The notes under the pieces are model-generated. The model searched no databases, had not been told where the DNA came from, and saw only the letters and a list, made by a program, of their open reading frames with translations. From a virus: a stretch of 64,000 nucleotides of DNA. The DNA lies in the IMG/VR virus record IMGVR_UViG_3300009987_000001, positions 1-64,000 of that record; one strand, given 5' to 3'. Shown here in pieces: positions 2,485 to 56,900 of this stretch (the stretch's first letter is position 1; each line of letters opens with the position of its first letter). The position numbers were made by a program, and so were the translations under genes.

Positions 2485-2927
2485 CCGGCGTGCTGCTCCG
2501 CTGCTTCAGCTCGTCGATTTTCCTGCCGTGCCTTCAGTACGGCTTCGGGCGTGGCCGCTTTGGCTTTCGCATTTTTCACCTGCTCCTTCAGCTCCGTGAC
2601 GGAGAGCACCTTGCGAGAAGAGCTGCCGTTAGCACGCGGGCCGCGGTCACGAACGACCACTTGCCTTTCCTCCTTCGGCTCCTCCTTCGCTTTGCGCTTC
2701 GTCGGGATCTCGACACCGAACGCAGCTTCAGCAACGAACTTCTTGCTCTTGTCGAACAGGTTCGCACCTTGCTGGTAGCGCACGTTCGGCCGCGCCAGAT
2801 CGCGCACCTGAATGTACTTCAGGCGCTCATCGAGCACCGGGATCGCCGGCACTTCCACCTTGGGCTCGTCTTTCTTCAGCTGCTGTTGCAGCGGCCGATT
2901 CAAAGATAGAGTGTTGTTCACTGCCAT
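2481..2927 (-). CDS. Hypothetical virion-module protein (Lys/Glu-rich)
   Basis: 148-aa ORF, co-directional, with a 4-nt overlap with the downstream gene. The competing + ORFs 2452..2778 and 2490..2909 have shadow-like composition. Confidence 0.6.
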   Translation of the reverse strand: MAVNNTLSLNRPLQQQLKKDEPKVEVPAIPVLDERLKYIQVRDLARPNVRYQQGANLFDKSKKFVAEAAFGVEIPTKRKAKEEPKEERQVVVRDRGPRANGSSSRKVLSVTELKEQVKNAKAKAATPEAVLKARQENRRAEAAEQHAG

Positions 2928-2928
2928 T

Positions 2929-3120
2929 TCACTTGCCTCGCTGACTGCGCGGCGATTGCACCTGTCCCATTACCGCCTCGCGATTTTCATACGTCGTGTC
3001 GACATAGAGACAGCCCGAGATTCCTTCCTCCAAGCTCTTCCCCTGCCGGAATTGCTGTTCCGTCGTCGGAGGATCAGAGTCGCTCTGTTGGAACGATTCG
3101 TAAATTCCCATTACCTTCAT
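2929..3120 (-). CDS. Hypothetical small protein
   Basis: 63-aa ORF abutting 2481..2927 (1-nt gap) in the structural operon. Confidence 0.45.
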   Translation of the reverse strand: MKVMGIYESFQQSDSDPPTTEQQFRQGKSLEEGISGCLYVDTTYENREAVMGQVQSPRSQRGK

Positions 3121-3172: not shown

Positions 3173-3442
3173 TTACTCCTCGACTTGGAAGGTCTTGCCG
3201 TGATGGCTGGCACTGTGCCAGGAGCGTTTCTTGATCCGCTCCGTCGGGTTGCCAGTCAACGGGTCCTTCATCGTGCAGACTTCCGGCTCGTTCTGCTGCG
3301 TGTCCATGTTGGCCTGGTACGAGCTCAGGCCGTACTCGACGCCTGCGCCCTCCTTGCCCATTTTGCCACCACCGGTGCTGATCGTGGACTGCTTACCGGC
3401 CCACGGTTGGTCAGCACCCTTACCTGCTTTCCAGCTACTCAC
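3173..3442 (-). CDS. Hypothetical small protein (Gly/Lys-rich)
   Basis: 89-aa ORF, co-directional in the structural operon. Confidence 0.45.
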   Translation of the reverse strand: MSSWKAGKGADQPWAGKQSTISTGGGKMGKEGAGVEYGLSSYQANMDTQQNEPEVCTMKDPLTGNPTERIKKRSWHSASHHGKTFQVEE

Positions 3443-18875: not shown

Positions 18876-18950
18876 TGGGGTGCCTGCCGGGGTTCGAACC
18901 CGGTCCGCTGGATTCACAGTCCAGAAACCTCCCGATCGGTCTCCAGGCAC
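18876..18950 (-). tRNA. tRNA-His (anticodon GTG), CCA encoded, no encoded G-1
   Basis: Manual cloverleaf: acceptor GTGCCTG/CAGGCAC, D stem GACC/GGTT, anticodon stem CTGGA/TCCAG with loop CTGTGAA, T arm CCGGG-TTCGAAC-CCCGG, discriminator C, then CCA. Confidence 0.8.
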
Positions 18951-19487
18951 AGACTTGAGCATGCCAGAGCTGTGAGAGTTTTTCCACGTGTACGCGCGAG
19001 GAGCGCCCACCGGAAAATTTCCTGCCGCGCTTTCGCAAGGTACCGGTACCGCTCGCTTTTTCCGTCAGACGAAGAGGGGCCCCTCACGTGCGCGCGTAGA
19101 AAAATTCCGCTGCTTTTTGTGGTGACTAAGGAATAGATCGCGCGGGCCTAAAGCCCCGAAATCTTTTCAGCTCGCCGTGAAGTATGAGGCTCATTTTGGC
19201 GGCGGAGATCGGATTCGGCGCAGCGCCAGGGAGCCAGATTGGCGCATAACGTGGAAATTGTTAAATGCCCGGTATGTCATAAGTCATTGATATCCCTCGA
19301 GATTACGAGGACAGCGCAGATTATTTCGAGCTCACTGCGACAAAACAACAGCAAATCTGATGCCGGCCGATCTCGGCCAGTGCTGTCAATCCATAAGTCG
19401 CCGCTTATGTATCAGTTCACGCGCGTGTAGTGCTCTCCTCCGCGTTTCGTTTGCCATAAATCGCAAGAAACACCGGAGCACAGCGAT

Positions 19488-20300: not shown

Positions 20301-20323
20301 GCTTGCATTTGTTGAACAAATAA
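20301..20323 (+). repeat. 23-bp motif CTTGCATTTGTTGAACAAATAAT, copy 1
   Basis: Identical to 23963-23985. Contains the palindrome ATTTGT-TGA-ACAAAT and TTGCAT. Confidence 0.6.
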
Positions 20324-20373
20324 TAATAAGCTCGCTCCTGTTCCGGCAATTCCGCCAAACAGGAGCGAGCAAG

Positions 20374-20604
20374 ATGGAAATCACGATTAGGGAACTGCAG
20401 GACATCTGCGAGAACGCAGACGCTCCGCGCGTTGTCATCGCACTGGCCGAGATCGGCCTCTTTGCCCAAGTCACAGTTGGTCTTAACCAGCTCCTTTCGG
20501 ATGCTGAGCGGCAGCTATTGCGGACTCTCGCTGGCGATGCCTTTGGTGGCTGGAATACTGCCCGAGCAATCGCGGCTTTGATTCTGCTCAAGCATTGCTC
20601 GTGA
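20374..20604 (+). CDS. Early protein, function unknown
   Basis: MEITIRELQD... with AGGAG 8 nt upstream. The track ORF 20263..20604 begins earlier, in non-coding-looking sequence. Confidence 0.6.
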   Translation: MEITIRELQDICENADAPRVVIALAEIGLFAQVTVGLNQLLSDAERQLLRTLAGDAFGGWNTARAIAALILLKHCS

Positions 20605-20651
20605 GGCTTGCGCGTTGCCTACTGGCCACCAGTGGGCAATTCGGAATCCTC
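20603..20651 (+). repeat. Intercistronic long-hairpin element, copy 1
   Basis: GAGGCTTGCGCG / TTGCCTACTGG-CCA-CCAGTGGGCAA (one T.G) / TTCGGAATCCTC. It starts on the TGA of 20374..20604. Confidence 0.85.
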
Positions 20652-20675
20652 ATACGTCAACCGGAGAAACACCAA

Positions 20676-21275
20676 ATGAACATCACCTCACACATGATCT
20701 ACTCGTTAGGCTTGGACGTTTTCTTTTCTGACCGCGGTCTAGACGGCATGTATTTCATTGCTGGTGGGCAAGTACACGTCAAGTGCAGTGGCGGTTACAC
20801 CCTTAGCGAAATCGAGTACATCCGCAAGGATATGCTCGCTATCCAAAAGGCTTACGACTCGGGTGCGTTTGCCGGTGGATTCAATTCGGACGAAGAGTGC
20901 GACGCCGCTACCTCGTTTGCTCGCGAGGCAGAGCAAGACGTCTGCGACGAGTACGGCGCGAATTCGCCCGAAGCGCTTGCAGTAAGCGAGGCGCGCAACG
21001 CAGTCTTTGAGGCGCAGTACAAACCCAAGGCAACCGACAATGGATTGAGCTGGTCGGAATTGCTCGCACAAGTGCGTGCTTTGGGGCTTACGCTCCGGCG
21101 AAATGATGACGAATACCGGCTCAACGCCAAAGGCGCGAAGGAAGCTAGCGCGTATTACACAAACGATCGCGAAGACGTGCTTAGCACTGCGCTGTGTTGG
21201 GGCGATGTTTGCAAAGCTCGCAACGTCGCACGTCGCACGGGCCAGCTTACTGACTGGTCGACCGTGGCACGCTGA
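20676..21275 (+). CDS. Early protein, function unknown
   Basis: MNITSHMIYS... begins 25 nt after element 1 with GGAG upstream. The track ORF 20595 start would read through the element. Confidence 0.6.
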   Translation: MNITSHMIYSLGLDVFFSDRGLDGMYFIAGGQVHVKCSGGYTLSEIEYIRKDMLAIQKAYDSGAFAGGFNSDEECDAATSFAREAEQDVCDEYGANSPEALAVSEARNAVFEAQYKPKATDNGLSWSELLAQVRALGLTLRRNDDEYRLNAKGAKEASAYYTNDREDVLSTALCWGDVCKARNVARRTGQLTDWSTVAR

Positions 21276-21317
21276 GGTTTGCGCGCTGCCCAGCGTGCTG
21301 GGCAGTTCGGAATCCTC
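21274..21317 (+). repeat. Intercistronic long-hairpin element, copy 2
   Basis: GAGGTTTGCGCG / CTGCCCAG-CGTG-CTGGGCAG / TTCGGAATCCTC. The stem sequence differs from copy 1 but pairing is kept. Confidence 0.85.
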
Positions 21318-21337
21318 ACAACACGGAAGCCACAACC

Positions 21338-22573
21338 ATGACAACAACCGCTCGGTATTACACCACCATCGCAGGGCAGCCAGTGCCGCTGCAGGGAGTG
21401 ACTTTCATCACTCCCGAGCAAGCAGATGCATGCGACAACCTGCAAGCCTCGGAATCAATTCGTCGCGTCATGCACAACGGTACTCTCGCAGTGGGCACAG
21501 TAGAGTCAGTGGGTGGTTTGTTCGAGGCTGATCGATGCATCGCCTACAGCAACACACCCTCACGTCACAAGTGCGATGCTCGCTGTATGAACGCAGTGGG
21601 CAATCAGTGTGAGTGTTCTTGCGGAGGTATGAATCACGGGAAAGGCGGATTCTCGGCGCTGGATTGGACCGCGCTTGAAGAAGTGCTGAGCGAGGAAGAT
21701 AGCGACGCAGCCGATTTTGGCACTGTACGTGCCGCTAAGCCTGCCGTGGCGCTAATCGAGCCTGCCGCGCAACTGGGCATGGGTGTCGACCGCAGCGTCG
21801 CTACGATCGCCAAATATCGCTGCAACAATTGCGGCGGTTCGGGTCGCTGGAAACCAACGCCATGGCATGCCCGTTCATGGCCCTGCAATAAGTGCCACGG
21901 TAAAGGCTTGCTCAAGACTGATCCCGCAGTGCTCCAAAAACGTCGCGAGGACAAAGCGCGCAAACAGATGCAGGCACGTGAGGAATATCGCGCCGCGCAC
22001 GCTGATGTGTTCGCTTGGCTCGATTCACAAGCGAGTAAACACAGCCAGTTTGCTGAATCCTTGCTCGCTGCGTTCCTCAAATGGGGAACGCTCACTGAAG
22101 GACAGATTGCCGCGGTTCGCCGATCGCTGGTACGTGATGCTGAGCATGCAGCTAAGGCTAAGGTTGTCGATGCTGTCGTTACCGGTGGCGGATTCGATCG
22201 CATGATTGACGCGTTCAAAGCTGCCAAAGCCAGCGGCTTGAAGTATCCGAAGTTTCAGGTTGGCAGTTACGTATTCCAACCTGCAACAGCCAACTCGAAG
22301 TACCCTAACGCGATCTTCGTCAAGGGTGGTCGCAGTTTCCAGAGTGCCTATTACGGGCGCATTGAAGCTAATGGAGACTTCTTTGCCGCTCGCGAGTGCA
22401 CCAGCGAGCATCGAGCCGCTATCCTCGAAATCTGCAAGGATCCGTTCGCTGCTGCCGTCATGCACGGCAAGCAAACCGGCTCGTGTAGCTGCTGTGGCCG
22501 CACTCTGGAGAACGAAGAGAGTGTACGGCTAGGCATCGGTCCAATTTGTCGCGGCAAGTGGGGATTAGGCTAA
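21338..22573 (+). CDS. Zinc-finger protein with DnaJ-type CxxCxGxG repeats and a DUF6011-like C-terminus
   Basis: CNNCGGSGRW...CNKCHGKG, and a C-terminal GSCSCCGRTLENEESVRLGIGPICRGKWG (C..CGR.L....S...GIGP.C as I recall for DUF6011). Confidence 0.6.
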   Translation: MTTTARYYTTIAGQPVPLQGVTFITPEQADACDNLQASESIRRVMHNGTLAVGTVESVGGLFEADRCIAYSNTPSRHKCDARCMNAVGNQCECSCGGMNHGKGGFSALDWTALEEVLSEEDSDAADFGTVRAAKPAVALIEPAAQLGMGVDRSVATIAKYRCNNCGGSGRWKPTPWHARSWPCNKCHGKGLLKTDPAVLQKRREDKARKQMQAREEYRAAHADVFAWLDSQASKHSQFAESLLAAFLKWGTLTEGQIAAVRRSLVRDAEHAAKAKVVDAVVTGGGFDRMIDAFKAAKASGLKYPKFQVGSYVFQPATANSKYPNAIFVKGGRSFQSAYYGRIEANGDFFAARECTSEHRAAILEICKDPFAAAVMHGKQTGSCSCCGRTLENEESVRLGIGPICRGKWGLG

Positions 22574-22620
22574 GAGGCTTGCGCGTTGCCCACTGCATCA
22601 GTGGGCAATTCGGAATCCTC
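22574..22620 (+). repeat. Intercistronic long-hairpin element, copy 3
   Basis: GAGGCTTGCGCG / TTGCCCACTG-CAT-CAGTGGGCAA / TTCGGAATCCTC. The whole 47 nt folds as a 22-position stem with 3 mismatches and one G.U pair. Confidence 0.85.
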
Positions 22621-22642
22621 ACAACGGACAAGGAGTGCAAAG

Positions 22643-22918
22643 ATGAATTACCAAATGGCGATATATGCCGCGCAAGTCCTACTGTGTGACATGCGAGGAA
22701 ATCCTCAACCCGTGAAAAGCCGCATCGTCCGCAAGATGCGAGGGGGGAGCCAAGCGCAAAAGCGCTTGAAACTGCGAGACGGCAGCGGCTGTTACTCTCG
22801 GGCCGCTATGCGTGCGTATGGCATGCTTGGACAGTTCATTCCGCGTACTCCGGAAGCTATAGCCAACGCTATGGCTAAGTTGCGGCGTCTAAATGGTCCA
22901 GTAAATAGAGTCTGGTAG
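22643..22918 (+). CDS. Early protein, function unknown
   Basis: MNYQMAIYAAQ... with GGAG 8 nt upstream, 22 nt after element 3. Confidence 0.55.
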   Translation: MNYQMAIYAAQVLLCDMRGNPQPVKSRIVRKMRGGSQAQKRLKLRDGSGCYSRAAMRAYGMLGQFIPRTPEAIANAMAKLRRLNGPVNRVW

Positions 22919-22966
22919 AGGCTTGCGCGTTGCCCGCTGGCACCAGTGGGCAATTCGGAATCCTCC
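22918..22966 (+). repeat. Intercistronic long-hairpin element, copy 4
   Basis: GAGGCTTGCGCG / TTGCCCGCTGG-CAC-CCAGTGGGCAA (one G.T) / TTCGGAATCCTC. Overlaps the TAG stop. Confidence 0.85.
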
Positions 22967-22989
22967 GCAACACAGTGAGTGCTCTAAAA

Positions 22990-23403
22990 ATGGAAAAGCC
23001 TCTTTACGCTGCGATTGCCGAGCTTGTGGCTGCTCGGGACAACTGCAAGGAATCAGCCAAGCGTGACGCCACTGGACACTACAGGCATCAGATGCAGCTG
23101 CACGAGCAGCGGTTGCTTGCGCTGGTAACGAACCACATGCCTAGCGGTGCAGGGTTCGACAACGCAACCACAATCGAGCTTGATAGATGCAGCCGCAACA
23201 TGCTCGTGTTCACTGTGCGTTTCCACCACATGAACGAACAAGGGTCTTACGATGGCTGGACTACGCACACAGTGCGCGTAACGCCAGACATGGTGTCAGA
23301 CATACAACTCTCGATTAGTGGTCGCAACAGAAACGACGTCAAGGAGCATATACACCAAGCATTCGACATCGCATTGCGGGCAACCGCCACTTGGATTTAC
23401 TAG
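22990..23403 (+). CDS. Early protein, function unknown
   Basis: MEKPLYAAIAEL..., preceded by the conserved leader CAGTGAGTGCTC. Confidence 0.55.
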   Translation: MEKPLYAAIAELVAARDNCKESAKRDATGHYRHQMQLHEQRLLALVTNHMPSGAGFDNATTIELDRCSRNMLVFTVRFHHMNEQGSYDGWTTHTVRVTPDMVSDIQLSISGRNRNDVKEHIHQAFDIALRATATWIY

Positions 23404-23415
23404 AGGGCTGAACTA

Positions 23416-23613
23416 ATGTTGCAACGTCAAGAATTTATGGCAAAAGTAAAAGCTTTCTCGCAGAATCACGCGAGCGAGCACCGAATATTGGTGGATGAAT
23501 ACGACGCAGTGTATGTGTATGACAGTGTTGCGAAGCATTACACGGTCCTGCACGGCCTGAGTGTGGCGCAACAGCGCAGACTCCGTGTGATCGCTCAAAA
23601 ACGCCGCAAGTAA
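23416..23613 (+). CDS. Early small protein, function unknown
   Basis: 65-aa ORF followed 2 nt later by element 5. Confidence 0.5.
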   Translation: MLQRQEFMAKVKAFSQNHASEHRILVDEYDAVYVYDSVAKHYTVLHGLSVAQQRRLRVIAQKRRK

Positions 23614-23615
23614 TC

Positions 23616-23662
23616 GAGGCTTGCATGTTGCCCACTGACTCAGTGGGCAATCTGGAATCCTC
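23616..23662 (+). repeat. Intercistronic long-hairpin element, copy 5 (diverged flanks)
   Basis: GAGGCTTGCATG / TTGCCCACTG-ACT-CAGTGGGCAA / TCTGGAATCCTC. Confidence 0.8.
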
Positions 23663-23680
23663 CGCAACTTAGAGAGTGCC

Positions 23681-23833
23681 ATGTGCCATGAAATTTGTGA
23701 CTACTGCAAGCAGCCTGTACTCCCTGGCGAGCCGCGCCACGCAATCACCGGCCGGCATTGGGAGTGCCAACGCCGATATGAAAACGAGCTTGCGCAACGC
23801 AACGACAAGCCAAAAGAAGACAAAGCGCGGTAG
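23681..23833 (+). CDS. Possible 50-aa Cys-rich (zinc-ribbon-like) protein
   Basis: ATG 23681 follows the GAGAGTGCC leader seen before other early ATGs. MCHEICDYCKQPVLPGEPRHAITGRHWECQRRYENE... The frame differs from track ORF 23676..23984. Confidence 0.45.
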   Translation: MCHEICDYCKQPVLPGEPRHAITGRHWECQRRYENELAQRNDKPKEDKAR

Positions 23834-23984
23834 GCCGCGTCGCTACGCTAAAGGCAGCACGCGATTGCCGGTGACCATCGAACCGCACGTACTTGCAGCT
23901 TGGAAGAGAGCAGGCGGAACTGACTTGGCTGGCGACATCGCTGCAGCCTTCGCCGAAAAGTTCTTGCATTTGTTGAACAAATAA
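23778..23984 (+). CDS. Small basic protein, possible RHH-type DNA binder (start uncertain)
   Basis: The C-terminal two-thirds of track ORF 23676..23984 (KRGRPRRYAKGSTRLPVTIEPHVLAAWKRAGG...) looks coding. The N-terminal third looks like the out-of-frame image of 23681..23833. Confidence 0.45.
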   Translation: MKTSLRNATTSQKKTKRGRPRRYAKGSTRLPVTIEPHVLAAWKRAGGTDLAGDIAAAFAEKFLHLLNK

Positions 23985-23985
23985 T
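23963..23985 (+). repeat. 23-bp motif CTTGCATTTGTTGAACAAATAAT, copy 2
   Basis: Identical to 20301-20323. Here it overlaps the last codons and stop of 23778..23984. Confidence 0.6.
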
Positions 23986-24021
23986 CCAGACTTCAATTCC
24001 CTAGCTTATAGAGTGCATCGT

Positions 24022-24942
24022 ATGAAAACACTTCCTGCCACGATTGTCCCGTATCGAATCGACACCTCCACGGCAAAAGGTACTGCAGCGTACAAGGAAC
24101 TACAAGACAGGCTCTTGGCTCGCGGGTTCCGTCCGATGAATGTGAATCTGGACGGCAACTACTCGCAGACGACGGCTGATAGCCATAAGTTCGTAGAGAC
24201 AATCGACGCAATCACTAAAGCCGGTGGTCGCGTCGAGATCGAGACGAAACACTTGTTTGCTGATCAGTGGAATACTGCGCCACAGCCAGAGTACGGCTCA
24301 GATAAGGGACTGCGAATTCATCAATGGTGCCGGTTCGAGTATCGCAATCGACACATGCAACACGGGTATTATGTGGAACTGTCTCCCGAGTTGTCTGAGC
24401 TCGTGAGTAAGACTTTGGTGTGTGGCTATTGCGGCACACAGTACGCGCCAGGTACGCCTCGCTCGGCTAGCCATCCCGTTCAGTTCTGTGAAAGCTGCAT
24501 CGGTAGTCCGTATCTCAAGCAATCAGATCTGTATCTGACTCGCCTGCGACCAGTGTCCGCAGAAAGGATCCGCAACGATCGACCGCCGCTCAGCACGGAA
24601 GAATCCGCTGTGCTGGTTCCTGCCTTCGCTCAACGGTTGGCAAAGGCTAATGTGATCTTGGTTGCGAAGAAGAAAGCGCAGATTGAAAGGAACTTCGAAC
24701 TTGCCAGCGAGGAACGCACGGCTGCGCATTGGATACTCGATCACTTTGGACCTGCACTGCTCGACAACTACATTTTTTACAGTCACAAAGAACCGCCCAA
24801 AGCACGTCATTGCTTCGGTTGGCGAATACCGTTGAGTAATGACGAAGTGTCGTTTGTACTCGATAAAATCAGCGAGTTCCCTTACGCGTATCAGCTCAAG
24901 ACTGAATCGCGCGGAGTGTTGGAAAGCTACAGCGAGGCATGA
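24022..24942 (+). CDS. Early protein with a CxxC...CxxC cluster, function unknown
   Basis: ATG 24022 is preceded by the GAGTGC leader (the track starts at GTG 24013). VCGYCGTQY...FCESCIGSPY. Confidence 0.6.
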   Translation: MKTLPATIVPYRIDTSTAKGTAAYKELQDRLLARGFRPMNVNLDGNYSQTTADSHKFVETIDAITKAGGRVEIETKHLFADQWNTAPQPEYGSDKGLRIHQWCRFEYRNRHMQHGYYVELSPELSELVSKTLVCGYCGTQYAPGTPRSASHPVQFCESCIGSPYLKQSDLYLTRLRPVSAERIRNDRPPLSTEESAVLVPAFAQRLAKANVILVAKKKAQIERNFELASEERTAAHWILDHFGPALLDNYIFYSHKEPPKARHCFGWRIPLSNDEVSFVLDKISEFPYAYQLKTESRGVLESYSEA

Positions 24943-24988
24943 GGCTTGCGCGTTGCCTAGCTGTGTAGCTGGGCAATTCGGAATCCTT
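24941..24988 (+). repeat. Intercistronic long-hairpin element, copy 6
   Basis: GAGGCTTGCGCG / TTGCCTAGCT-GTGT-AGCTGGGCAA (one T.G) / TTCGGAATCCTT. Confidence 0.85.
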
Positions 24989-25008
24989 AGCCACTAGACG
25001 GAGGACTA

Positions 25009-25224
25009 ATGAACGTTCGAAAGGGTATGCAAGTCAAAGCGCACTTGCCGCGCGGCGGCCATATCACCGGTAAGGTGATGCGGATCGACCGGTCATCGAA
25101 CTTTGCTCGCGCCTATGGAGCGCAAGCGACGCTCGACACTGGTTATACGGTGGGCGTCGGTGATGTGTTCGAAATCATCGACGCCATCGATAAGCGAGTC
25201 ACCGAAGAGAGCAAGCAGGCATGA
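25009..25224 (+). CDS. Early small protein, function unknown
   Basis: 71-aa ORF with GGAGG 5 nt upstream. Confidence 0.6.
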   Translation: MNVRKGMQVKAHLPRGGHITGKVMRIDRSSNFARAYGAQATLDTGYTVGVGDVFEIIDAIDKRVTEESKQA

Positions 25225-25469
25225 GAAACATAGCTGCAGCGCTAAGCGCGTCGCGCATGAACGTGTCATACGACAAAGCCAGGATGCTTTACCACGGCGG
25301 TTACATCAGTGAGCTGGAGTGGCGATGGTTTGCTTTCTTCTGGGAGTGGTACTGCTTCCGCCACACTGACCGGCAGGAACGCGCGTGGCGCAAGCTCGGT
25401 ACCGAGGGTATGGAACGACGCTATGCACGCGTACGCGCGTTGCGAGATCGCCTAGCCCGTAGTAATTGA
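25221..25469 (+). CDS. Early small protein (Trp-rich), function unknown
   Basis: 82-aa ORF with an ATGA overlap with 25009..25224. Confidence 0.6.
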   Translation: MRNIAAALSASRMNVSYDKARMLYHGGYISELEWRWFAFFWEWYCFRHTDRQERAWRKLGTEGMERRYARVRALRDRLARSN

Positions 25470-25512
25470 GGCTTGCGCGCTGCGTCCGTGTCGGGCGCAG
25501 TTCGGAATCCTT
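25468..25512 (+). repeat. Intercistronic long-hairpin element, copy 7
   Basis: GAGGCTTGCGCG / CTGCGTCCG-TGT-CGGGCGCAG (one T.G; the stem sequence is unrelated to copy 3) / TTCGGAATCCTT. Confidence 0.85.
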
Positions 25513-25535
25513 AACCAACAGTGAGTGCTCTATTT

Positions 25536-25928
25536 ATGCAACTCAAAGTGATAGCTTGCGGTCATATCGACGATGACAGCTCTGCTGGCAAAGCAATAGA
25601 CCCTGCCACCGGATCACGAATCTGCAAGCGCTGCGCTGCCAGAAGAGAACGGCAGTACATGATCACAACCGGCCTTGCTGGCTTGTATCTCACGACTCCT
25701 ACGGTCCCTGCCGATCAGGCGCGCAGCACGGACTATCACGTGACTGACTGGCTAGGCGGCCTTAGCTTCCCGGTGTTCAACTACAAACACTCCAAACAAG
25801 GGGGCGGGTTCGGAGCGCAACGCGAGGACTTTGATTTTGTCGGTCCTGATGGCTTCATCTGGCACGGTATCGTGCGAGGGGATATGCAGTTTGCGCGCTG
25901 CAAGCGTACCAAGCGCAAGAGCAAGTGA
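25536..25928 (+). CDS. Early protein, function unknown
   Basis: MQLKVIACGH..., preceded by CAGTGAGTGCTC. The track start GTG 25521 is less likely. Confidence 0.55.
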   Translation: MQLKVIACGHIDDDSSAGKAIDPATGSRICKRCAARRERQYMITTGLAGLYLTTPTVPADQARSTDYHVTDWLGGLSFPVFNYKHSKQGGGFGAQREDFDFVGPDGFIWHGIVRGDMQFARCKRTKRKSK

Positions 25929-25940
25929 TTCGAGATCCTT
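25929..25940 (+). repeat. Hairpin-less remnant of the intercistronic element (3' flank plus leader only)
   Basis: TTCGAGATCCTTAACCAACAGTGAGTGCT matches the 3' flank and leader of copy 7. The 5' box and stem are absent. Confidence 0.6.
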
Positions 25941-25962
25941 AACCAACAGTGAGTGCTTCGAT

Positions 25963-26346
25963 ATGGAACTGCCAAAACATTTCACAGTGATGAATAACGG
26001 CGATCTCGAGCGATGGATGCCGCACATTGGACCGATCGCAACCAAGCTCGTGCGACCGGGTTATGCTGTCACGCATCCGAGGATCACAAACACCCACGAA
26101 TTGCGTGCGACATTGCGTAACGGCAGCGTGAGCACTTGGGGTAGCTACACGCTGATGTTTCTGTGCACCGATGGTGGAGCGCTGTGTTTCGACTGTGCCC
26201 GAGAGAACTATCGCGAGATCTCCGCATCAATTCGATATGGGTACAGGGATGGCTGGCGCGTAGCTGCCGTCATCTCAGAGTCAGATTGTGTCGACCCTGT
26301 TTCGTGCGATCACTGCAACAAGGTAGTGATTCACTCTGCAGAGTGA
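25963..26346 (+). CDS. Early protein (Cys-rich C-terminal half), function unknown
   Basis: MELPKHFTVMNNG..., preceded by GAGTGC. LCFDCAREN...CDHCNK. Confidence 0.55.
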   Translation: MELPKHFTVMNNGDLERWMPHIGPIATKLVRPGYAVTHPRITNTHELRATLRNGSVSTWGSYTLMFLCTDGGALCFDCARENYREISASIRYGYRDGWRVAAVISESDCVDPVSCDHCNKVVIHSAE

Positions 26347-26392
26347 GGCTTGCGCGTTGCCCACTGGCGCCAGTGGGCAATTCGGAATCCTA
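26345..26392 (+). repeat. Intercistronic long-hairpin element, copy 8
   Basis: GAGGCTTGCGCG / TTGCCCACTG-GCGC-CAGTGGGCAA / TTCGGAATCCTA. Confidence 0.85.
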
Positions 26393-26552: not shown

Positions 26553-26824
26553 TCAGTGTTGACGCCGCAAAGACTCGACTCGAGCTCGAGGGAGGCGCGC
26601 GTATCGGCGCCATCATGCGCCGCGCAGACGAGACTGCAGCTGATGCTGTCATGTCTGTGATCGCGGCTCAAAAACAAGTGTGGACGCGCGACGAATGGAC
26701 AACCGGATCCATCGCGCCATACGCGACGCTGAATGGCTGCTCGCACCTGATGACGTCATCACCATTCGCGAGCGCTCGCAGGAGGACGGCTAGGAGGCGC
26801 GAGGGTCGGCCGTTACCTAGGTAG
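26549..26824 (+). CDS. Hypothetical early protein (3' end doubtful)
   Basis: The N-terminal ~50 aa look coding, but the Arg-rich tail runs into the 26801-26836 palindrome. An alternative 32-aa ORF 26695..26793 (MDNRIHRAIRDAEWLLAPDDVITIRERSQEDG) stops just before the palindrome. Confidence 0.35.
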   Translation: MISVDAAKTRLELEGGARIGAIMRRADETAADAVMSVIAAQKQVWTRDEWTTGSIAPYATLNGCSHLMTSSPFASARRRTARRREGRPLPR

Positions 26825-26836
26825 CGGTCGACCCTC
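26801..26836 (+). terminator. 36-nt near-perfect palindrome / strong stem-loop closing the early operon
   Basis: GAGGGTCGGCCGTTACCTAGGTAGCGGTCGACCCTC. All 18 mirror positions pair (two G.T on the + strand). No U tract. Confidence 0.4.
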
Positions 26837-26873
26837 GATCGCGTCCCTGGCGCGTGCTCCGTTCGCCTGGCAC
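26836..26873 (+). repeat. 38-nt direct repeat, copy 1
   Basis: CGATCGCGTCCCTGGCGCGTGCTCCGTTCGCCTGGCAC. About 30 of 38 positions are identical to 26957-26994. Confidence 0.6.
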
Positions 26874-26956
26874 ATAACCTAGCGTGTGCCCTGGCTTCCT
26901 ATAACGCGATTAGAGACGACCTCACCGCTACTGGCACCTACCCAGCGGGTTAGACC

Positions 26957-26994
26957 CGATCGCATCCCTGGCGCCTCCAGGTTTCGTCTGGCAC
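26957..26994 (+). repeat. 38-nt direct repeat, copy 2
   Basis: CGATCGCATCCCTGGCGCCTCCAGGTTTCGTCTGGCAC. A third CCCTGGCGC occurs near 27042. Confidence 0.6.
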
Positions 26995-27328
26995 GATTCC
27001 CGGCCATGACACACCAAAACACCAGATTGATACACCGAGCCCTGGCGCTCGATGACACGCCGCTCGAGCAGACGGTCCCGTTTACCGCACCCCACACACG
27101 CTGGTGGATGTGGACCAAATGCGAGCTTTCAGATGTTTTTCAAAGCCTTACGATCGAATCGGATTCCGGGGTGGATTTTGACCAAACCCACCACACCCCT
27201 CTACTAAGTGACGAATTTCCCTGCCGCTTCAGCGAGTTGAGTGAGTGGTAAAAATGGGACGTCGAAATAACCACACCCGCGACTTTTCTCAATGAAATCA
27301 AATCCAAACCTGTTGTTTTTCGATCCAG

Positions 27329-27345
27329 GGTGGATTAGGTGGATT
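27329..27345 (+). repeat. Iteron pair GGTGGATT-A-GGTGGATT
   Basis: Tandem copies at 27329-36 and 27338-45. A further copy lies at 27170-77. Confidence 0.6.
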
Positions 27346-27449
27346 TGTGGCTGGCATCCATATACAGGGGAAGATTTTTTCTCTCCTGTATATCCATACA
27401 TAGAAAAAAAAATCTTCTCTACGTAAGAAGGGGATCCAGGTTTCCACCT

Positions 27450-27466
27450 AATCCACCTAATCCACC
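27450..27466 (-). repeat. Iteron pair in inverse orientation (AATCCACC-T-AATCCACC)
   Basis: Copies at 27450-57 and 27459-66, a partial TTTCCACC at 27441-48, and another AATCCACC at 27769-76. Confidence 0.6.
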
Positions 27467-27507
27467 ATTGACACGCGTAACTACCATGTTTTTTATAGCG
27501 ATTCATC

Positions 27508-27516
27508 TGTGGATAA
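27508..27516 (-). promoter_or_regulatory. Consensus DnaA box (TTATCCACA on the minus strand)
   Basis: TGTGGATAA at 27508-27516. Weaker matches are TTATCCAGC (~27555) and ATATCCATA (~27390). Confidence 0.55.
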
Positions 27517-27587
27517 CTTTTTTTCGATTGTTGGAACATATTCCGGCAGGTATTTTATCCAGCAGTTGATTTCATTGAAGAAAAAGG

Positions 27588-27611
27588 GGTGGAAAGTTGG
27601 GTGGAAAGTTG
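27588..27611 (+). repeat. Tandem 12-bp repeat GGTGGAAAGTTG x2
   Basis: 27588-27599 and 27600-27611, followed by GATTTG. An iteron variant. Confidence 0.6.
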
Positions 27612-27737
27612 GATTTGTCCTACAGTCGATTTTCTTTACACTCCGCAACTGCGTCACACTTTCGACAAAAAGTTGCTTCCTTGTCGGTTTAACCGCAGTT
27701 AAAGTGCGCGGCGGGTCAACCACAAACGGAGCACGAT

Positions 27738-28736
27738 ATGTGCGCACCATCTGAGAATCTTTCCACCAAATCCACCCCAGTCGCAGAGTGGGTCAGCCTT
27801 CAGGGACGAGTCGGCGAGACAGGTTATGTCCGTCCGGGCGAGCCTTGGTTCTTTGGTACTGGCGTATTGAGACCGCTCGTGCCTCACCAGGTCAGTCTCG
27901 AACTCGACTCCTGCAACATGATTCGCATCGATTCAGACGTCACGCTCGAGCCTTACGTTCGCATCTATAAAGGCGTCACAGTCAAGCGCGGCGCGTTTAT
28001 TGGCAGTAGCACCACTCTCTTCACAGGCGCATTCATTGGTCAGGGTGCGCACATCGGCTTGACATGTCACATAGGCCGGGGAGCGAGAATTCCTCCCGGC
28101 ACTTTCATTCCGAGCTACTCAACTGTGCCAGCCCGCACGACCTGGGTCCAAATGCTCGGCAGAGAGCGTCGCGGCTACCCGGTACTTCTCGCGCGTGTGG
28201 CAGTGACACAGGAAGAGATCGGTGAAATGCATGTTGACGAGCGCCGCCTATTGCGCTCCGACGGCGAAGGAACCCACCACTACTATGTGATCTCGGCCGG
28301 ATGCCGGCTGATGACGTTACCGCAAGCACTGCAGCACTGGGGTGACGACTACAACGGTGCACCGCGCGACGCTCGCTTCATGCGAGTGATCCTCCGGAAC
28401 ATCGGCGAGATACTGTATGAACTCGAGGGCGAGTTCTACGACACCAATCTGATGCTGTCGATTCGGCGACCGCATCACCTACCGCAAGTGCTGTCATTTG
28501 ACGGATCGCCGCCCGAACCGCTCGTGAGAGTTTCGGGACTCGAAGTGTTGGCACCTCCGATCATCGCCTCCGCCCCCAGAGTCTCAAGCGAAGCCGGCCC
28601 GGAGCTTGCAGCAGTCGACTGCCCGGCACCCGAGTGCACGCCCACCGTCGAGATCGAAGACCAGATGCAAGAGAGCATCCGGAACAATCGATTCAACGAA
28701 GAGCTCGACACCAAACTCGAACAGCTCGGCTGCTGA
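27738..28736 (+). CDS. Left-handed beta-helix (hexapeptide-repeat) protein with a C-terminal AGCR..T..QAL.HWG motif
   Basis: Six consecutive hexads IGSSTT LFTGAF IGQGAH IGLTCH IGRGAR IPPGTF. The start is uncertain: ATG 27918 (MIRIDSD) would avoid the iteron at 27761-76. Confidence 0.55.
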   Translation: MCAPSENLSTKSTPVAEWVSLQGRVGETGYVRPGEPWFFGTGVLRPLVPHQVSLELDSCNMIRIDSDVTLEPYVRIYKGVTVKRGAFIGSSTTLFTGAFIGQGAHIGLTCHIGRGARIPPGTFIPSYSTVPARTTWVQMLGRERRGYPVLLARVAVTQEEIGEMHVDERRLLRSDGEGTHHYYVISAGCRLMTLPQALQHWGDDYNGAPRDARFMRVILRNIGEILYELEGEFYDTNLMLSIRRPHHLPQVLSFDGSPPEPLVRVSGLEVLAPPIIASAPRVSSEAGPELAAVDCPAPECTPTVEIEDQMQESIRNNRFNEELDTKLEQLGC

Positions 28737-34788: not shown

Positions 34789-34802
34789 CCACCACACTCG
34801 AC

Positions 34803-34832
34803 AGGGGTGAGCAACCCTCACCCCTGCTTTTT
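34803..34832 (+). terminator. Rho-independent terminator
   Basis: AGGGGTGAG-CAACC-CTCACCCCT followed by GCTTTTTG. Confidence 0.75.
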
Positions 34833-34844
34833 GTGCCCTAAAAT

Positions 34845-34921
34845 GCGTCGGTAGCTCAGTCGGTTAGAGCAACCGGCTTTTAACCGGTAGGTCGTGAGTT
34901 CGAGTCTCACCCGACGCACCA
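34845..34921 (+). tRNA. tRNA-Lys (anticodon TTT), CCA encoded
   Basis: Manual cloverleaf: acceptor GCGTCGG/CCGACGC, D stem GCTC/GAGC, anticodon stem ACCGG/CCGGT with loop CTTTTAA, T arm GTGAG-TTCGAGT-CTCAC, discriminator A, then CCA. Confidence 0.9.
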
Positions 34922-39354: not shown

Positions 39355-39509
39355 TGTGCCCGAGTGCGTACGCTGATCACGATGAGGATTTCTTCGTGAC
39401 TTGTGAGAACTGCGGCAACGAGCAACCGGACTTTGGTGCTAACGTCGCATGTGAGCAGTGCGGTGAGACGATGCCGTACTATGATGAAGATGGTAATTTG
39501 ATCGACTGA
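39354..39509 (+). CDS. 51-aa zinc-ribbon protein
   Basis: TGATG overlap with the upstream stop. MCPSAYADHDEDFFVTCENCGNEQ...CEQCGETMPYY (CxxC...CxxC). Below the track cutoff. Confidence 0.55.
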   Translation: MCPSAYADHDEDFFVTCENCGNEQPDFGANVACEQCGETMPYYDEDGNLID

Positions 39510-39634
39510 ATCATCGGTTGTTAACTGGACGCCAGCGGGATAGTCAACCGTACAATTTTTCCAGTTTCCTGTACGGGTGCAACGAACAGGCAGACGTAGG
39601 GCTTTACCGCTGACCGATTTACTAGGAGTCTTTT

Positions 39635-40237: not shown

Positions 40238-40730
40238 AATTGGTGTGATGAAGATCTCGGATCAACTGGAGTTTCTCGGGCGGCAGATCGAGAAGCTGAC
40301 TGCTGTATTGAAGCAGTCAGAGCTCAAACAACCGACGGTTGCCGAGAAGCCTGCCGCTGAAGTCGACGCTGAGAAGCCCGCCAACAAGCCGGCCGCTGAG
40401 AAGAAAACACCCAGCGCGGCAGCAGCCAAAGCAAAAGCCAAAGCGAAGGAGGCAGCGGCCAAAGCCGACAAGGAAGAGAAGCAGGTCACGGAAGCGGACT
40501 TCCGTGCCACGCTGACCAAGCTGCAGCAGCACTTCACGACCATCGCGAAGACCACTGCTGAAAAGAATGGCGCGAAGGATCGCTGTCGAGTGGTGATGAA
40601 CCACTTCGGTGGTTCCAAAGCGCTCTCCGAAATCAAGCCGGAGAGCTACGCAAGCATCGTCGACTTCGCCAGCAAAGTCATGGCGGCGGAGGACAACGGC
40701 GAGGAGTTAATGGCCGAAATCGAGGGGTAG
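40227..40730 (+). CDS. Hypothetical protein with an Ala/Lys/Glu low-complexity tract
   Basis: 167-aa track ORF (GTG). The alternative ATG 40248 gives MKISDQ. The minus-strand ORFs here are shadows. Confidence 0.55.
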   Translation: MSLEIGVMKISDQLEFLGRQIEKLTAVLKQSELKQPTVAEKPAAEVDAEKPANKPAAEKKTPSAAAAKAKAKAKEAAAKADKEEKQVTEADFRATLTKLQQHFTTIAKTTAEKNGAKDRCRVVMNHFGGSKALSEIKPESYASIVDFASKVMAAEDNGEELMAEIEG

Positions 40731-42972: not shown

Positions 42973-42998
42973 GGGGCAGCTACGGCTGCCCCTTTTCT
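42973..42998 (+). terminator. Rho-independent terminator
   Basis: GGGGCAGC-TACG-GCTGCCCC followed by TTTTCT, 10 nt after the 42208..42963 stop. Confidence 0.7.
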
Positions 42999-53350: not shown

Positions 53351-53969
53351 TCCGTGCTTTTGTCCAGTAACGTGCCCGCGCTTCCTGGCCGTGCAAACCG
53401 CCGCTGACGCGCCTTGTGATGGTGTCGAAATCCTCCTTGATGTCGTCGCCTGGGTTGTCTACGGCAAGTAATGATAACTTATTCTCAGTCCAAAACCAGG
53501 CCGCGCCCATTGCGCCGAACGTCTTCGTCAGCAGCATATCCGGCACGGTAACCACCAAAGGTTCGCCAATCGATTCAGCAAATCCCTGATAATTCTTGCG
53601 CCCCGTGATCATGATCGGGCCGCGCCCGCGGAAGTTCCACGCGTCCATCGAGTCTGGCAAGTTGCCGAGCCGGTTCGAATAGACATAATCCGCCAGCCGA
53701 TGCGGCGCACGCTCATATCGCCGTGCGAACTCGATCGACTTGAATCGCGATGGCCACACTTGACGAAGCCGCTCGGCTGTGTAGCTCAAGTTCTCCTCGA
53801 GCCTGGTCAGCTCGACACTCTCGTGTGCGACCTGGGCGAGGAGTGCTGCCTTGTCGGCAGGCTCCTCGATCCAGAAGCGATCGAACGCATGATCGAACGC
53901 CGCGCCCCATGCGGCAGGGCTCTTGCATGCCGGCATGATCGTCTTGATGACGGTTTCAGTCGTTACCAT
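53325..53969 (-). CDS. Endolysin, glycoside hydrolase family 19 (chitinase-like)
   Basis: LLAQVAHESVELTRLEENLSY...FRGRGPIMITGRKNYQGF is the GH19 lysozyme signature. I chose start MVTTET (53969), which overlaps the giant ORF stop by 14 nt. The track start is 54152. Confidence 0.85.
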   Translation of the reverse strand: MVTTETVIKTIMPACKSPAAWGAAFDHAFDRFWIEEPADKAALLAQVAHESVELTRLEENLSYTAERLRQVWPSRFKSIEFARRYERAPHRLADYVYSNRLGNLPDSMDAWNFRGRGPIMITGRKNYQGFAESIGEPLVVTVPDMLLTKTFGAMGAAWFWTENKLSLLAVDNPGDDIKEDFDTITRRVSGGLHGQEARARYWTKARSVYGLKEV

Positions 53970-56900
53970 ATTTCTCCTGCAAGTATCGAAGCTTTTTCTC
54001 GACTCGGATACCGTTGACGGTTTCCTGTGTGTAGCGACTGCGTTGCCGCGCGCTGCTGATGATACTGGATGCCGAGATCGGATAGGTAGGATTGGCTTTG
54101 TTGAACGCAGCGATCTCCTTGATTGACTCCTGTACTCCAGTCGGATCGTCATTCTGCGCGGCGAGGAACAACCGGTTCATGACGTTCGCGCGCCGCTGGA
54201 CGATCTTGGTCTCTTCGTTCTTGATCGTGCGGTTCTTGTCGTACTGCTGCGTGATCTGCAGCGGCGTGAAGCCGATCGCCTGCAGGAACAGATCGCGGTT
54301 GCTGAGCTCGTCGCGGCCGATGATCTCGTCGCCGCGCTTGTTCGTTACGCCGTCGCGCGCGTAGCGCACCAGCTTCAACACGTCACTGATCGCTTTCGGT
54401 GTCATCTGCTCGAGCGCTCGATCGCCGTAGTCTTGTTCGGCCAGCTCGCTTGCCTTGAGACCTTTGAAGACCAGGCCGCCGATCGGGCCCGCCGCCTGCG
54501 ACAACCACCAACCGTACTCGTCGGTGGCGTTCATACCCATTGGTTTCTCTTGGAGCCACAGATGACCCAGGCCGACACGCGTCGACAGTGTTGCGTTGGT
54601 GGCAGTGGACAACGAGCCGTCCATGATCGCCGATGCCCAAGTGTCGCCGCCCCACTCCTCGAGCCAGGCACGCAGAGAACCCTCGGCGTCGTACGGTTCG
54701 TCATCCGTACCCAGCATCGCGTTCAGCACTGCATACCCGATCCACAAGAATGGCAGCCCGGTCAGACCTGCGTTCAAGAATGTCATCGACAACAACCCGC
54801 CGAGCCGGATTGTTGCTTTCTTTCGTTCACCGGGCGGCATCGCTTTCAGTGCGGTCGAGTTGCGGAAGTCACGCGCAAGCCGGTAGCTCATGTTCATCGA
54901 GTACTGGCGGAACAAGAACAGAACTTTCTTGCCGTCGCCTTGCATGAACCGCGGCCGGTTCGTTGACTGGTATTGGAAGTGCGAATCCCATGTGAAGTTC
55001 TCAGCCATCTCAACCGCCGCTTCTTGCGACAGTCCCTTCTCCTTTGCCATACGGAAGGCGGCCAGGAACGTCACTTCGCGGTTGGCTTGCTCCGTCTTCT
55101 GGAACAGCCACGTGATGATCTTCATCAACTGGGCGCGGCCGGTACCCATGTTCTCGCCTTGCTCGCCGAGCTCGGCCAGGTCGGTTGTCCTGGTCTGTGT
55201 GAACAAGCCGATACGCAGCGCCTCGTCGAACGCCAGCCGCTCATCACCACGCAACTTGTTCGCCAGCGGCCCACGGCTGCCGGCCCACTGTGCAGCGGCA
55301 CGCAGCAGCGCAGCGCCACTCTTGGCCAGGCCGAACTCCGCGCCAAGTGTTGGGAACGCCACCATTGCCGTCTGCGACAAGTTCACCAGCGCTGCTGCAG
55401 GCGACGTGCCGAGGTAATAAGCGAAGCCAAGCGCGGTCAGGTTGTTCGCCCAGGCCGCGTTGGTTGGGTTGCGCGCCCACTTGTGGCGCTCTTTGAATTC
55501 ATCTGAGAGCGGCACTGCCCACTTCGCTTCGCTGTCGTTGTTCTGCTCCAACGCGCGTGCTTCTGACTCCATGTTCACGAGCTCAGATTCCATGCGATGC
55601 ATGTATTCGAGCTTCGCGATCTGGTGCGCGGCATGGAACTTGTTGGTGCCGAACGAGCGCAGCGCATCCGCTGTATAGCCGAGTCGGCCCTTCCGGTGTA
55701 GGAACTGCTTGCGCAGCGACGTCTCCGGCAGTGATTGCAAATACATCTGCCAGATCTGATCACTCATATCCGGGTCAACCTGGTCAGCCAGGTCAGTGAC
55801 CTTCGCCACGAAATCAGGGTCGATCTGCTTGAGCACGCTGGCTGATTGGTTGGCTGGTTTCGTGCCGCCGTCTGTTTTGAACCCTGCCGCTTGCATCTGT
55901 CGGCGCCAGGCCGTCACTTCACTCTGACTCTCGCGACGCACGTACGAAACGACTTCACCGCTCGCGTCCTTCGCCACTGCCCAGTACTTGCCGAACCTGG
56001 CAAGCGGGAAGTACGGCCCGGCGACCTTACCGGACTCGAACTGTTTACGCAGGCTGTCCAATAGCGCCTTCTTCACTTGTCCGTTGGCGCTCGACGCGTT
56101 GATGCGTTCTTGGATTCCCTGCAGCACGCGTTGGCGGTCGGTCTGATAGCTGTCGCGCACAGCTGCGTAGATCTCCTTGCCCTCTTGGTCTAATCGATTG
56201 GCGTACTGACTCAGTGCAGTGTAGGCAGCTCGCCGTTCCGCCTCGAGCTGCCGCATGGCCGGCGTGATTCGTCCAGGCTTCTTGTTCGCGAGCGAGGACA
56301 CGTACGGGACGAGCGGATCGACTGTTGCAAGGGTTGCCGCGTGCATGAGCTCACCGAGGATACGGGCGCCTGCGCGGTTCTTTTTCGTATAGTCCATCCA
56401 CCTCTTTGCAAGCTTCTCGGTTTCCGCCATCAGTTCGTTGCGCCGTCCGTCCAACCGGTCGGCCAGGCTGAGATAGCGGCGCGTCGAGTCCATCTTTCCT
56501 TTGCTGATGAAGTCGACCAGGTTGCGTCGCGGAATCAACGCAAGCAGAGTCGAGATACGATCCTGACCAAAGTCCTTGAGCGCATCGATACGCGAACCGA
56601 TCACACCAGGATTGTAGTTCGCCTGATCCTCGGCAGTGCTGCCTAGCCTGGACAAAATGCCTTGCGGTTGCAGCGGCGCACGATCCTGTGGATTGGTTCG
56701 GAAATCAGTTGCAAAGTCCAGATCCGGTCCGAACAAGTTCGGCTTGGCTTCCTTGTTGGCTCGGGCGATCTGGCGCGCATTGGCGCGCGACATCCGCAAC
56801 AGCCGTCGCAGGTCGTTGTCGGTGTAGTCGCGAACCAAACCCACCTTTCTGAGAACCGCTCGCATCGCGTCGTAAACACGCTGCAGCAGTGACTGATCAA

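Follow-up and report, generated by a model that had tools for sequence, protein, structure and literature searches.

The phage genome and its array of elements

The window analysed here comprises 64,000 nucleotides (nt) of the IMG/VR virus record IMGVR_UViG_3300009987_000001 (positions 1 to 64,000), most of the length of a phage genome of ~67.5 kb, and contains a family of hairpin elements, each of ~48 nt, repeated between the genes of one operon. The gene set includes the large and small terminase, an SU10-type portal, a family-A DNA polymerase, a primase-helicase, an exonuclease, a single-stranded DNA-binding protein, two tRNAs and a "polyvalent" virion protein of 2361 amino acids (aa). Three other public assemblies, two of them of 67.4-67.5 kb, are 100% identical to the window over the region compared and therefore contribute no extra variation. 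No cultured close relative was identified: a megablast of the region against 50,697 phage records gave no match, and the DNA polymerase is at most 33% identical to that of any cultured phage.

Genes run leftward from ~18.9 kb and rightward from 19.7 kb. The element array is found within the opening 7 kb of the rightward block, in a run of small open reading frames (ORFs) nearly all without known domains; an iteron-rich, origin-like region and the replication genes lie downstream of it. The layout of the genes suggests that this is the early block, and it is called so in what follows.

Eight copies, proposed beforehand from the letters alone (here the sequence-only reading), are present on the + strand at the coordinates then given, with a single correction: copy 4 ends at 22965 and not at 22966 (Table 1). 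A covariance model built from the copies recovered exactly these eight in the 64-kb window, on the + strand only and with 62-75 bits, the next-best match having 17.7 bits. A weak match of the model at 40608-40658 (-) was rejected, being inside a gene and folding no better than shuffled sequences (z -1.5). The exact 12-mer GAGGCTTGCGCG occurs six times, always on the + strand and within 20603-26356. A ninth copy is decayed: it keeps the 5' flank TTTGCGCGCTGC and the 3' flank TTCGAGATCCTT, has lost the stem and presents no fold (z -0.2). This remnant had been recognized as hairpin-less, correctly, and its extent had been taken as 25929-25940, when in fact both flanks are included. The 130-aa ORF runs through it to the TGA at 25926-25928, and the leader downstream is identical to that of copy 7 (AACCAACAGTGAGTGCT).

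The placement of the eight copies is strict. Each starts between -2 and +2 nt from the end of a stop codon and ends 16-24 nt before the next ATG, in line with the 4 nt and 15-30 nt of the sequence-only reading. In five of them the T that precedes GAGG completes a TGA stop. The gap between element and ATG is a CA-rich leader with a Shine-Dalgarno-like GAG or GGAG. That every early gene is punctuated in this way was too strong a claim: of the roughly 15 junctions from 20.3 to 26.8 kb, 8 contain an element, these being all the junctions with a gap of 62-71 nt. The junctions without an element are overlapping, tight or occupied by a promoter-like motif. No target-site duplications were found at the elements.

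Table 1. Coordinates of the element copies, the probable early promoter and the first early gene in the window
Feature	Start	End	Strand	Bits	Characteristics
Copy 1	20603	20651	+	72.6	After 76-aa gene; overlaps TGA 20602-20604; 24-nt leader to ATG 20676
Copy 2	21274	21317	+	64.6	After 199-aa gene; overlaps TGA; shortest upper stem (9 bp)
Copy 3	22574	22620	+	73.8	Immediately 3' of TAA of 411-aa DUF6011 gene
Copy 4	22918	22965	+	74.7	After 91-aa gene; overlaps TAG by 1 nt; G.U in upper stem
Copy 5	23616	23662	+	65.4	2 nt past TAA of 65-aa gene
Copy 6	24941	24988	+	70.2	After 306-aa gene; overlaps TGA; basal pair G.U
Copy 7	25468	25512	+	62.2	After 82-aa gene; overlaps TGA
Copy 8	26345	26392	+	72.8	After 127-aa gene; overlaps TGA; last copy of the array
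Decayed ninth copy	25890	25940	+		Both flanks kept, stem lost
Probable early promoter and hairpin	20302	20370	+		TTGCAT 20303-20308, 18 nt, TAAGCT 20327-20332
202-aa protein gene	19683	20291	+		First gene of the early block

Structure and conservation of the family

A common fold was identified in every window copy, with a folding energy of -25 to -29 kcal/mol and z scores of -3.7 to -6.2, and none of 200 shuffled sequences folded as well. From the base upwards it comprises 4 bp (GAGG/CCUC), a C.U mismatch, UU/AA, a G.G mismatch, CG/CG, a second C.U mismatch, an upper stem of 9-12 bp closed by G.U and a loop of 3-4 nt. The sequence-only reading was thus right about the upper stem, though with the closing G.U included its length exceeds the 8-11 bp then given. 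It was also right that the flanks pair; what had been described simply as an irregular helix is a lower stem in which three symmetric 1x1 mismatches (C.U, G.G and C.U) break the pairing into short helices of 4, 2 and 2 bp. The copies differ in detail. Copy 2 has U.U in place of C.U at the first mismatch, copy 5 presents a compensatory change in the lower helix (CG/CG to CA/UG), and copy 7 contains the most diverged upper stem, with three pairs altered on both sides.

Pairing of the upper stem is kept across the window copies, as had been claimed: 98.7% of the positions are paired and 7 of 19 pairs have changed on both sides, a result reached by none of 500 shuffles. When the register is slid the pairing falls to 29-51%.

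Searched for beyond its own genome, the family was found in two related phages, L011 and L049, which contain four homologous elements. The relatives were found by phylogenetic sampling, and the counts for these two cover parts of their early regions. L011, with a terminase 72% identical, contains three elements in its own early region (35-48 bits). L049, a genome of 63.7 kb reached through the 202-aa early protein, contains one in the 1.7 kb of early region compared, with a score of 34 bits under model R1 and 52 bits under the enlarged model R2. Each of the four has the sense orientation and begins within a TGA stop, and a gap of 11-23 nt separates its end from the following start codon. With them the family comprises 12 members in three genomes, all located between early ORFs of the same strand and 11-24 nt from the next start. 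In this set 96.9% of the cells are paired and 11 of 19 pairs have changed on both sides; all five measures lie above all 500 shuffles, and slid registers are paired at 51% or less. In place of the basal GAGG/CCUC, one L011 copy has GAUC/GAUC and the L049 element has GAGA/UCUC, with two extra base pairs gained on both arms together. The members of these two phages thus add independent covariation in a part of the helix that does not vary among the window copies.

The structure is biased to one strand. In the 11-member alignment A3, which includes every member except that of L049, G.U occurs in 16 cells and A.C in 2. The sense strand is 3-9 kcal/mol more stable than its complement in the eight window copies and is less stable in none of the 12 members. 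Selection of the structure on the sense strand, argued by the sequence-only reading from the G.U positions, agrees with these counts, and it is very likely that an RNA structure is under selection. The mismatches are kept as such: the three columns are non-canonical in 33 of 33 cells of A3, with varying identities (C.U, U.U, U.C, A.G and C.C), G.G being invariant, and the L049 element likewise contains three 1x1 mismatches with their spacing shifted. The helix spans 20-23 positions in 11 of the 12 members. Upper stem and loop vary freely, and there is no loop consensus.

The distribution of the family is narrow. The sequence signature of the element is absent from IMG/VR, from the JGI metagenome contigs and from 185,579 bacterial and archaeal genomes (GTDB). 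Matches to relaxed or degenerate signatures (L001 and L012-L045, of which L043 and L041 were inspected) were dismissed as chance, without structure. In Rfam no match reaches a gathering score or, even with permissive filters, E<=1, and the family is not one already described there. It is not present in L002 and L006-L008, relatives reached through the 306-aa early protein, and recognisable copies were not found in L047 and L048 (terminase identity ~61-62%). It is a lineage-specific, structurally distinct family of intercistronic RNA linkers known so far from three uncultured phage genomes, and its covariance model could seed a new Rfam entry.

Other hairpins and modules were identified in the early gaps of these relatives. 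In L047 an unrelated, irregular 19-bp hairpin (164-224, -) starts exactly at a TAG stop, following a homologue of the 137-aa gene of the window; it was not counted, nor was a hairpin of L048 whose flanks are faintly similar and which the models do not accept. L047 also encodes, adjoining the terminase, a 132-aa protein with a peptide-chain release factor (RF-1) domain (2602-3000, +). The long gaps of L006 (~330-430 and 2733-2818) contain another repeated intergenic module, in which a promoter close to consensus, CTTGTCACTGTCTAACTTTGTC[A/G]CCTA[T/G], precedes a 5' hairpin and a ribosome-binding site, GGAGATT; the layout is close to that of the promoter-early stem-loop (PeSL) considered below. 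In L011 a perfect 14-bp hairpin, GCTGCTACTGCTGA...TCGGCAGTAGCAGC, takes the place of a family member in an early gap (3233-3335, -), so other hairpin types do occupy equivalent positions.

A selfish REP- or MITE-type miniature palindrome spread in this phage lineage would have several of these properties, the description of REP elements being short, palindromic, extragenic, similar and multi-copy (PMC12306157), and one copy of the array is decaying. Like the elements, REP and BIME sequences are short imperfect palindromes in operon gaps and can stabilise the upstream message (PMC12306157). REPs, however, are found in tens to hundreds of copies per host chromosome, in both orientations and often clustered, whereas the elements are phage-borne, confined to one operon and absent from the 185,579 host genomes. 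REP elements are linked in many cases to a RAYT transposase; no transposase domain, RAYT-like or other, was identified in the window proteins scanned, which are a subset of its ORFs. All 12 copies share one orientation and one type of site, the stops of one operon, and lack target-site duplications. The signature is missing from the phage and metagenome collections as well, and compensatory evolution together with the kept mismatches points to purifying selection. A selfish origin is barely plausible.

Proposed processing of the early transcript and competing roles

The likeness in size and placement to the RNase III sites between T7 early genes, noticed by the sequence-only reading, was supported by folding the T7 early gaps with the same method. 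In these gaps irregular helices of 18-25 bp start at the stop codon; their base (CUCAAGG...CCUUUAUGAU) is conserved and their top varies. The T7 signals (R0.3, R0.5, R1, R1.1 and R1.3) form, like the elements, a paralogous set of hairpins placed between the cistrons of an early operon. The gap is 62-80 nt long for the T7 signals and 62-71 nt long for the elements, the helix begins at or next to the stop in both, and it makes about two turns in both, with 18-25 pairs in T7 and 17-20 pairs plus three mismatches in the elements. Both have a conserved base, a variable upper stem and loop, and no U tract. They differ in sequence, the T7 base having no counterpart in the GAGGCUUGCGCG...UUCGGAAUCCUC of the elements, and in the unpaired positions: T7 R1.1 presents one asymmetric internal loop of 4/5 nt (PMC6121014) where the elements present three symmetric 1x1 mismatches. 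The phage itself is unrelated to T7 and has no T7-type polymerase, and cleavage is proven in T7 and only predicted for the elements.

The combination of a two-turn helix, an imperfect conserved base and a free top and loop between stop and start is the T7 design, and for this reason an RNase III mechanism was chosen. In this reading, which is given a probability of about 45%, the elements would cut and stabilise the early mRNA, probably through host RNase III as in T7, and would serve as recombination joints as well. RNase III in particular is put forward as the processing enzyme with moderate confidence, from the comparison of structures; its cleft fits ~22 bp (PMC6212723). Each element would be the core of a linker of 60-70 nt that comprises the stop codon, the helix of ~22 positions, the CA-rich leader, the Shine-Dalgarno sequence and the start codon.

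Host RNA polymerase would read through the array from the promoter at 20303-20332; as the genes have no promoters between them, a single transcript is the simplest reading of the array. The hairpin would fold after the terminating ribosome leaves. From the known footprint, a ribosome positioned at the stop codon should enclose in its mRNA channel the 12 nt that form the 5' arm of the lower stem, so that the full substrate would exist only after termination. The two-turn helix would then be cut by an endonuclease specific for double strands, most likely host RNase III, in the conserved lower half that bears the mismatches, ~10-12 bp below the loop. The products would be separate messages with hairpin-protected ends and the same short leader, allowing independent expression of each gene.

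If this is correct, an uncultured lineage unrelated to T7 has reached the same solution for its early operon, in which one transcript becomes a set of independent, hairpin-capped messages. The family would then offer a compact natural system in which to ask which properties turn a short hairpin into a processing site, and its elements would be a candidate part for gene insulation in synthetic operons.

Several observations weigh against processing by RNase III. Cleavage, read-through and the transcript ends are deduced from sequence. The rhizobial RNase III favours longer duplexes than that of E. coli (PMC6121014), and if the host is rhizobial a helix with three mismatches may be a poor substrate. 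The 1x1 mismatches are symmetric, unlike the internal loop of T7 R1.1. The near-invariant lower stem (CUUGCG.../...GGAAUCCUC) suggests a more sequence-specific partner, RNase III reading mainly shape. Relatives at ~60% terminase identity lack the family, which is therefore not essential to this type of phage. Finally, the co-occurrence of the 202-aa protein with the elements fits a phage-specific factor equally well.

The same structural evidence would be accounted for if the hairpins remained uncut and acted as passive RNA insulators, blocking 3'-to-5' exonucleases, setting the 3' ends of messages that lie upstream and covering the gap that is not translated with structure that keeps Rho off, so that no polarity arises among the many small genes of the operon. 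Hairpins of -25 to -31 kcal/mol stand right after the stops with only 11-24 nt of single strand before the next start, and REP elements within operon intergenic positions are a known class (PMC12306157). A simple barrier, though, would not require a conserved lower-stem sequence or three kept mismatches, and has no need of a constant helix length of 20-23 positions. Passive insulation is regarded as unlikely, if the more serious of the other RNA-level roles.

A phage-encoded factor would explain the part of the element that insulation leaves aside, since the sequence and the mismatches of the lower stem are kept in three phages beyond the needs of shape recognition. The candidate is the 202-aa protein, which could bind the mismatched lower stem as antiterminator, translational regulator or nuclease. 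Among the early proteins it alone is shared by the window, L011 and L049, the three genomes with elements, and it is missing from L048, where the early region was covered in full and no elements are present. Its gene stands first in the block, directly upstream of the array. The link between protein and elements is one of co-occurrence only, in three genomes of one sub-clade, and shared ancestry may explain it. The protein has no Pfam or PHROG match, its AlphaFold model is poor (pLDDT 64) with all Foldseek hits against PDB at E>1, and no further homologous loci were found in IMG/VR or GTDB; it remains without domain, good model or fold match. In antitermination hairpins such as lambda boxB the loops are conserved. 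Here, unlike in boxB, the loops vary freely, and antitermination requires one or two sites, not eight. A binding site for a phage factor is judged decidedly unlikely.

Signals of transcription were considered as well, either hairpin promoters for a phage RNA polymerase or terminators and attenuators without U tract. The sequence-only reading had seen neither a U tract nor usable -35/-10 spacing, and the promoter and terminator scans indeed pick no element: the alignment has no conserved hexamer pair with 16-18 nt spacing, and no T run follows the stem, the leaders being CA-rich. Identity as sigma-70 promoter or intrinsic terminator was rejected for the lack of a hexamer pair and of a U tract. 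True terminators with GC stem and U tract are used elsewhere, at the operon ends 34802-34826 and 42973-42992 and also in L011, and eight terminators without promoters between them would silence the operon.

Conserved hairpins repeated upstream of early genes do serve as early promoters, at the DNA level, in N4-like phages (PMC9163698), and the present genome is N4-sized and encodes a virion-type protein of 2361 aa. The hairpin promoters of N4 and LUZ7 need a virion RNA polymerase, and no phage RNA polymerase was found here: there is no ORF with the size or signature of a T7-type polymerase, and the 2361-aa protein has no PDB sequence match and no similarity to the solved virion RNA polymerase of N4. 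An N4-type promoter was rejected because the giant protein is LPD39/DarB-like and not a polymerase, and because the fold is favoured on the non-template strand, whereas N4 and LUZ7 hairpins form on the template strand. Their stems are also much shorter (5-7 bp against 20 bp). A role in transcription is extremely improbable in either form. The 2361-aa protein (53956-61041, -) contains an LPD39 domain and a C-terminus that resembles DarB-like antirestriction and large polyvalent proteins; its first ~1500 residues have no match in PHROGs, Pfam or PDB sequences.

Gene turnover, probable control sequences and neighbouring features

The genes between the elements turn over while the elements stay. 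Only one of the 18 early proteins of the window has a homologue in L011, the product of the 202-aa first gene, and in a nucleotide BLAST of both early regions the elements are the sole similar islands (75-81%), with the exception of that gene and a short block upstream of it. The window and L049 share as anchors the 199-aa gene and a 50/98-aa pair, with different contents between them: copy 2, the 411-aa gene, copy 3, the 91-aa gene, copy 4, the 137-aa and 65-aa genes and copy 5 in the window; a 63-aa gene, the element (e1) and a 159-aa gene in L049. Homologues of single early genes of the window are scattered over different distant relatives. Conservation is higher in the elements than in the genes between them, and the early region accordingly resembles a series of standard sockets for unrelated genes. 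Such a view has been proposed for the PeSLs of T4-type phages; here the module is an RNA structure and not a promoter.

The 50/98-aa anchor consists of overlapping ORFs in different frames (23681-23984), both kept in L049 with 36% and 47% identity. The first encodes a Cys-rich protein of 50 aa (23681-23833). The second, of 98 aa, was called at 23688-23984 with a provisional start, and residues 19-88, in the C-terminal part, match L049. The conservation of both frames suggests a real overlapping gene pair.

In T4-type phages recombination between repeated intergenic modules, the PeSLs, shuffles small genes (PMC2839356, PMC4122927), and less than 50 bp of homology is enough (PMC2839356). A sequence of ~50 nt repeated between genes and common to related phages would likewise offer a homology patch for gene gain, loss and exchange, and the exonuclease and single-stranded DNA-binding protein of the phage were counted toward this joint role, which goes beyond the options raised by the sequence-only reading. 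PeSLs resemble the elements in being conserved modules of ~50-70 nt between small uncharacterised genes of a plastic early region, with indels and replacements between related phages bounded by the modules (PMC2839356, PMC4122927). They include, however, a strong sigma-70 promoter and a stem-loop that serves as terminator; the scan found no promoter in the elements, whose stem-loop has no U tract, the canonical terminators being elsewhere in the genome. PeSL stems are short G/C runs for which no covariation or conserved mismatches have been reported. The elements function like the T7 early RNase III sites, as far as the predicted processing goes, and evolve like PeSLs, and they belong to neither, since they share no sequence with the T7 sites, have symmetric mismatches and lack the PeSL promoter.

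Recombination could also be the primary role, with the elements acting on the DNA as joints for early-gene cassettes, homologous as in PeSLs or structure-specific as in the attC sites of integrons. The conserved elements flank unrelated genes, the gene units that differ between shared anchors have elements at their borders, individual early genes are dispersed over different relatives, and the identical leader of copy 7 and the remnant suggests duplication or conversion; PeSLs give the same pattern (PMC2839356, PMC4122927). Homologous recombination nevertheless needs identity and not a hairpin, and homology-driven exchange leaves the covariation, the G.U bias and the conserved mismatches unexplained, for which reason a recombination role is taken as secondary, probably a consequence of the repeated conserved linker. 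The strict anchoring at stop codons and the fixed distance to the ribosome-binding site indicate expression. No recombinase or integrase domain was identified in the early proteins and the selected middle and large proteins scanned. A primary role on the DNA appears very doubtful.

The attC sites themselves are imperfect palindromes, one 3' of each gene; the genes lack promoters of their own and form a one-way array behind a promoter. They have a conserved base, a variable middle and conserved unpaired positions, and it is their bottom strand that folds and recombines; an integrase is encoded nearby and the core sites are RYYYAAC/GTTRRRY. The elements are analogous in the geometry of the array, the conserved base and unpaired positions and the variable middle. 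They differ in that no integrase domain was found in the early and neighbouring proteins, RYYYAAC/GTTRRRY is absent from the alignment, the favoured strand is the top (sense) one and the length is shorter, 44-50 nt. One could still imagine a cassette-exchange system in a virulent phage in which the elements are strand-specific folded single-strand sites recognised by a phage factor, possibly the 202-aa protein, with an attC-like function and unrelated sequence. Promoterless early genes would be captured, excised and swapped, and the conserved mismatches would be marks of strand and register. Such a system is held to be highly improbable.

A probable early promoter, to judge from its sequence, was identified just upstream of the array (TTGCAT-18 nt-TAAGCT, Table 1). 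It is followed by a 13-bp 5' hairpin (20330-20370, -30.1 kcal/mol, z -8.7), and hexamers and hairpin are conserved in L049 with a different spacer. A 23-nt motif, CTTGCATTTGTTGAACAAATAAT, which contains the palindrome ATTTGTT-G-AACAAAT, occurs twice. At 20302-20324 it forms the -35 and spacer of this promoter; at 23963-23985 it lies over the stop of the 98-aa gene, just before the 306-aa gene, without a convincing -10. It may represent an operator, or else a further promoter.

Upstream of the 202-aa gene a conserved non-coding block was identified in the window (19125-19266), in L049 (9269-9420) and in L011 (6464-6564, -). It comprises an invariant core of 20 nt, AAGTATGAGGCTCATTTTGG, with the palindrome ATGAG-G-CTCAT, and a second stretch, GCGCATAAC..GGAAATTGTTAAAT. 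Its probable role is to control the two divergent blocks, early and late.

Downstream of the array, a 19-bp hairpin (26800-26837) extends across the stop of a 91-aa gene in the region 26800-26994. The same region contains direct repeats of 59 nt (26815-26873 and 26936-26994), 71% identical, each terminating in TCCCTGGCGC...CTGGCAC, the TGGCAC of which appears similar to the -24 element of sigma-54 promoters. Iteron-like repeats, AATCCACC and TCCACCTAATCCACC, follow in both orientations at 27176, 27324-27345, 27441-27466 and 27760-27777 (block 27170-27780) and flank an AT-rich palindrome at 27370-27417. This block, directly downstream of the element array, looks like a replication origin.

The tRNAs are tRNA-His (GTG) at 18876-18950 (-) and tRNA-Lys (TTT) at 34845-34921 (+), the latter preceded by the canonical terminator at 34802-34826. 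Within the block of replication genes, positions 39509-39618 (+) match the Rfam family Atu_At1 (RF02496), a small RNA of Rhizobiales, with 67.1 bits against a gathering score of 60. This match and a G+C content of 57% are only a hint at the host, possibly an alphaproteobacterium.

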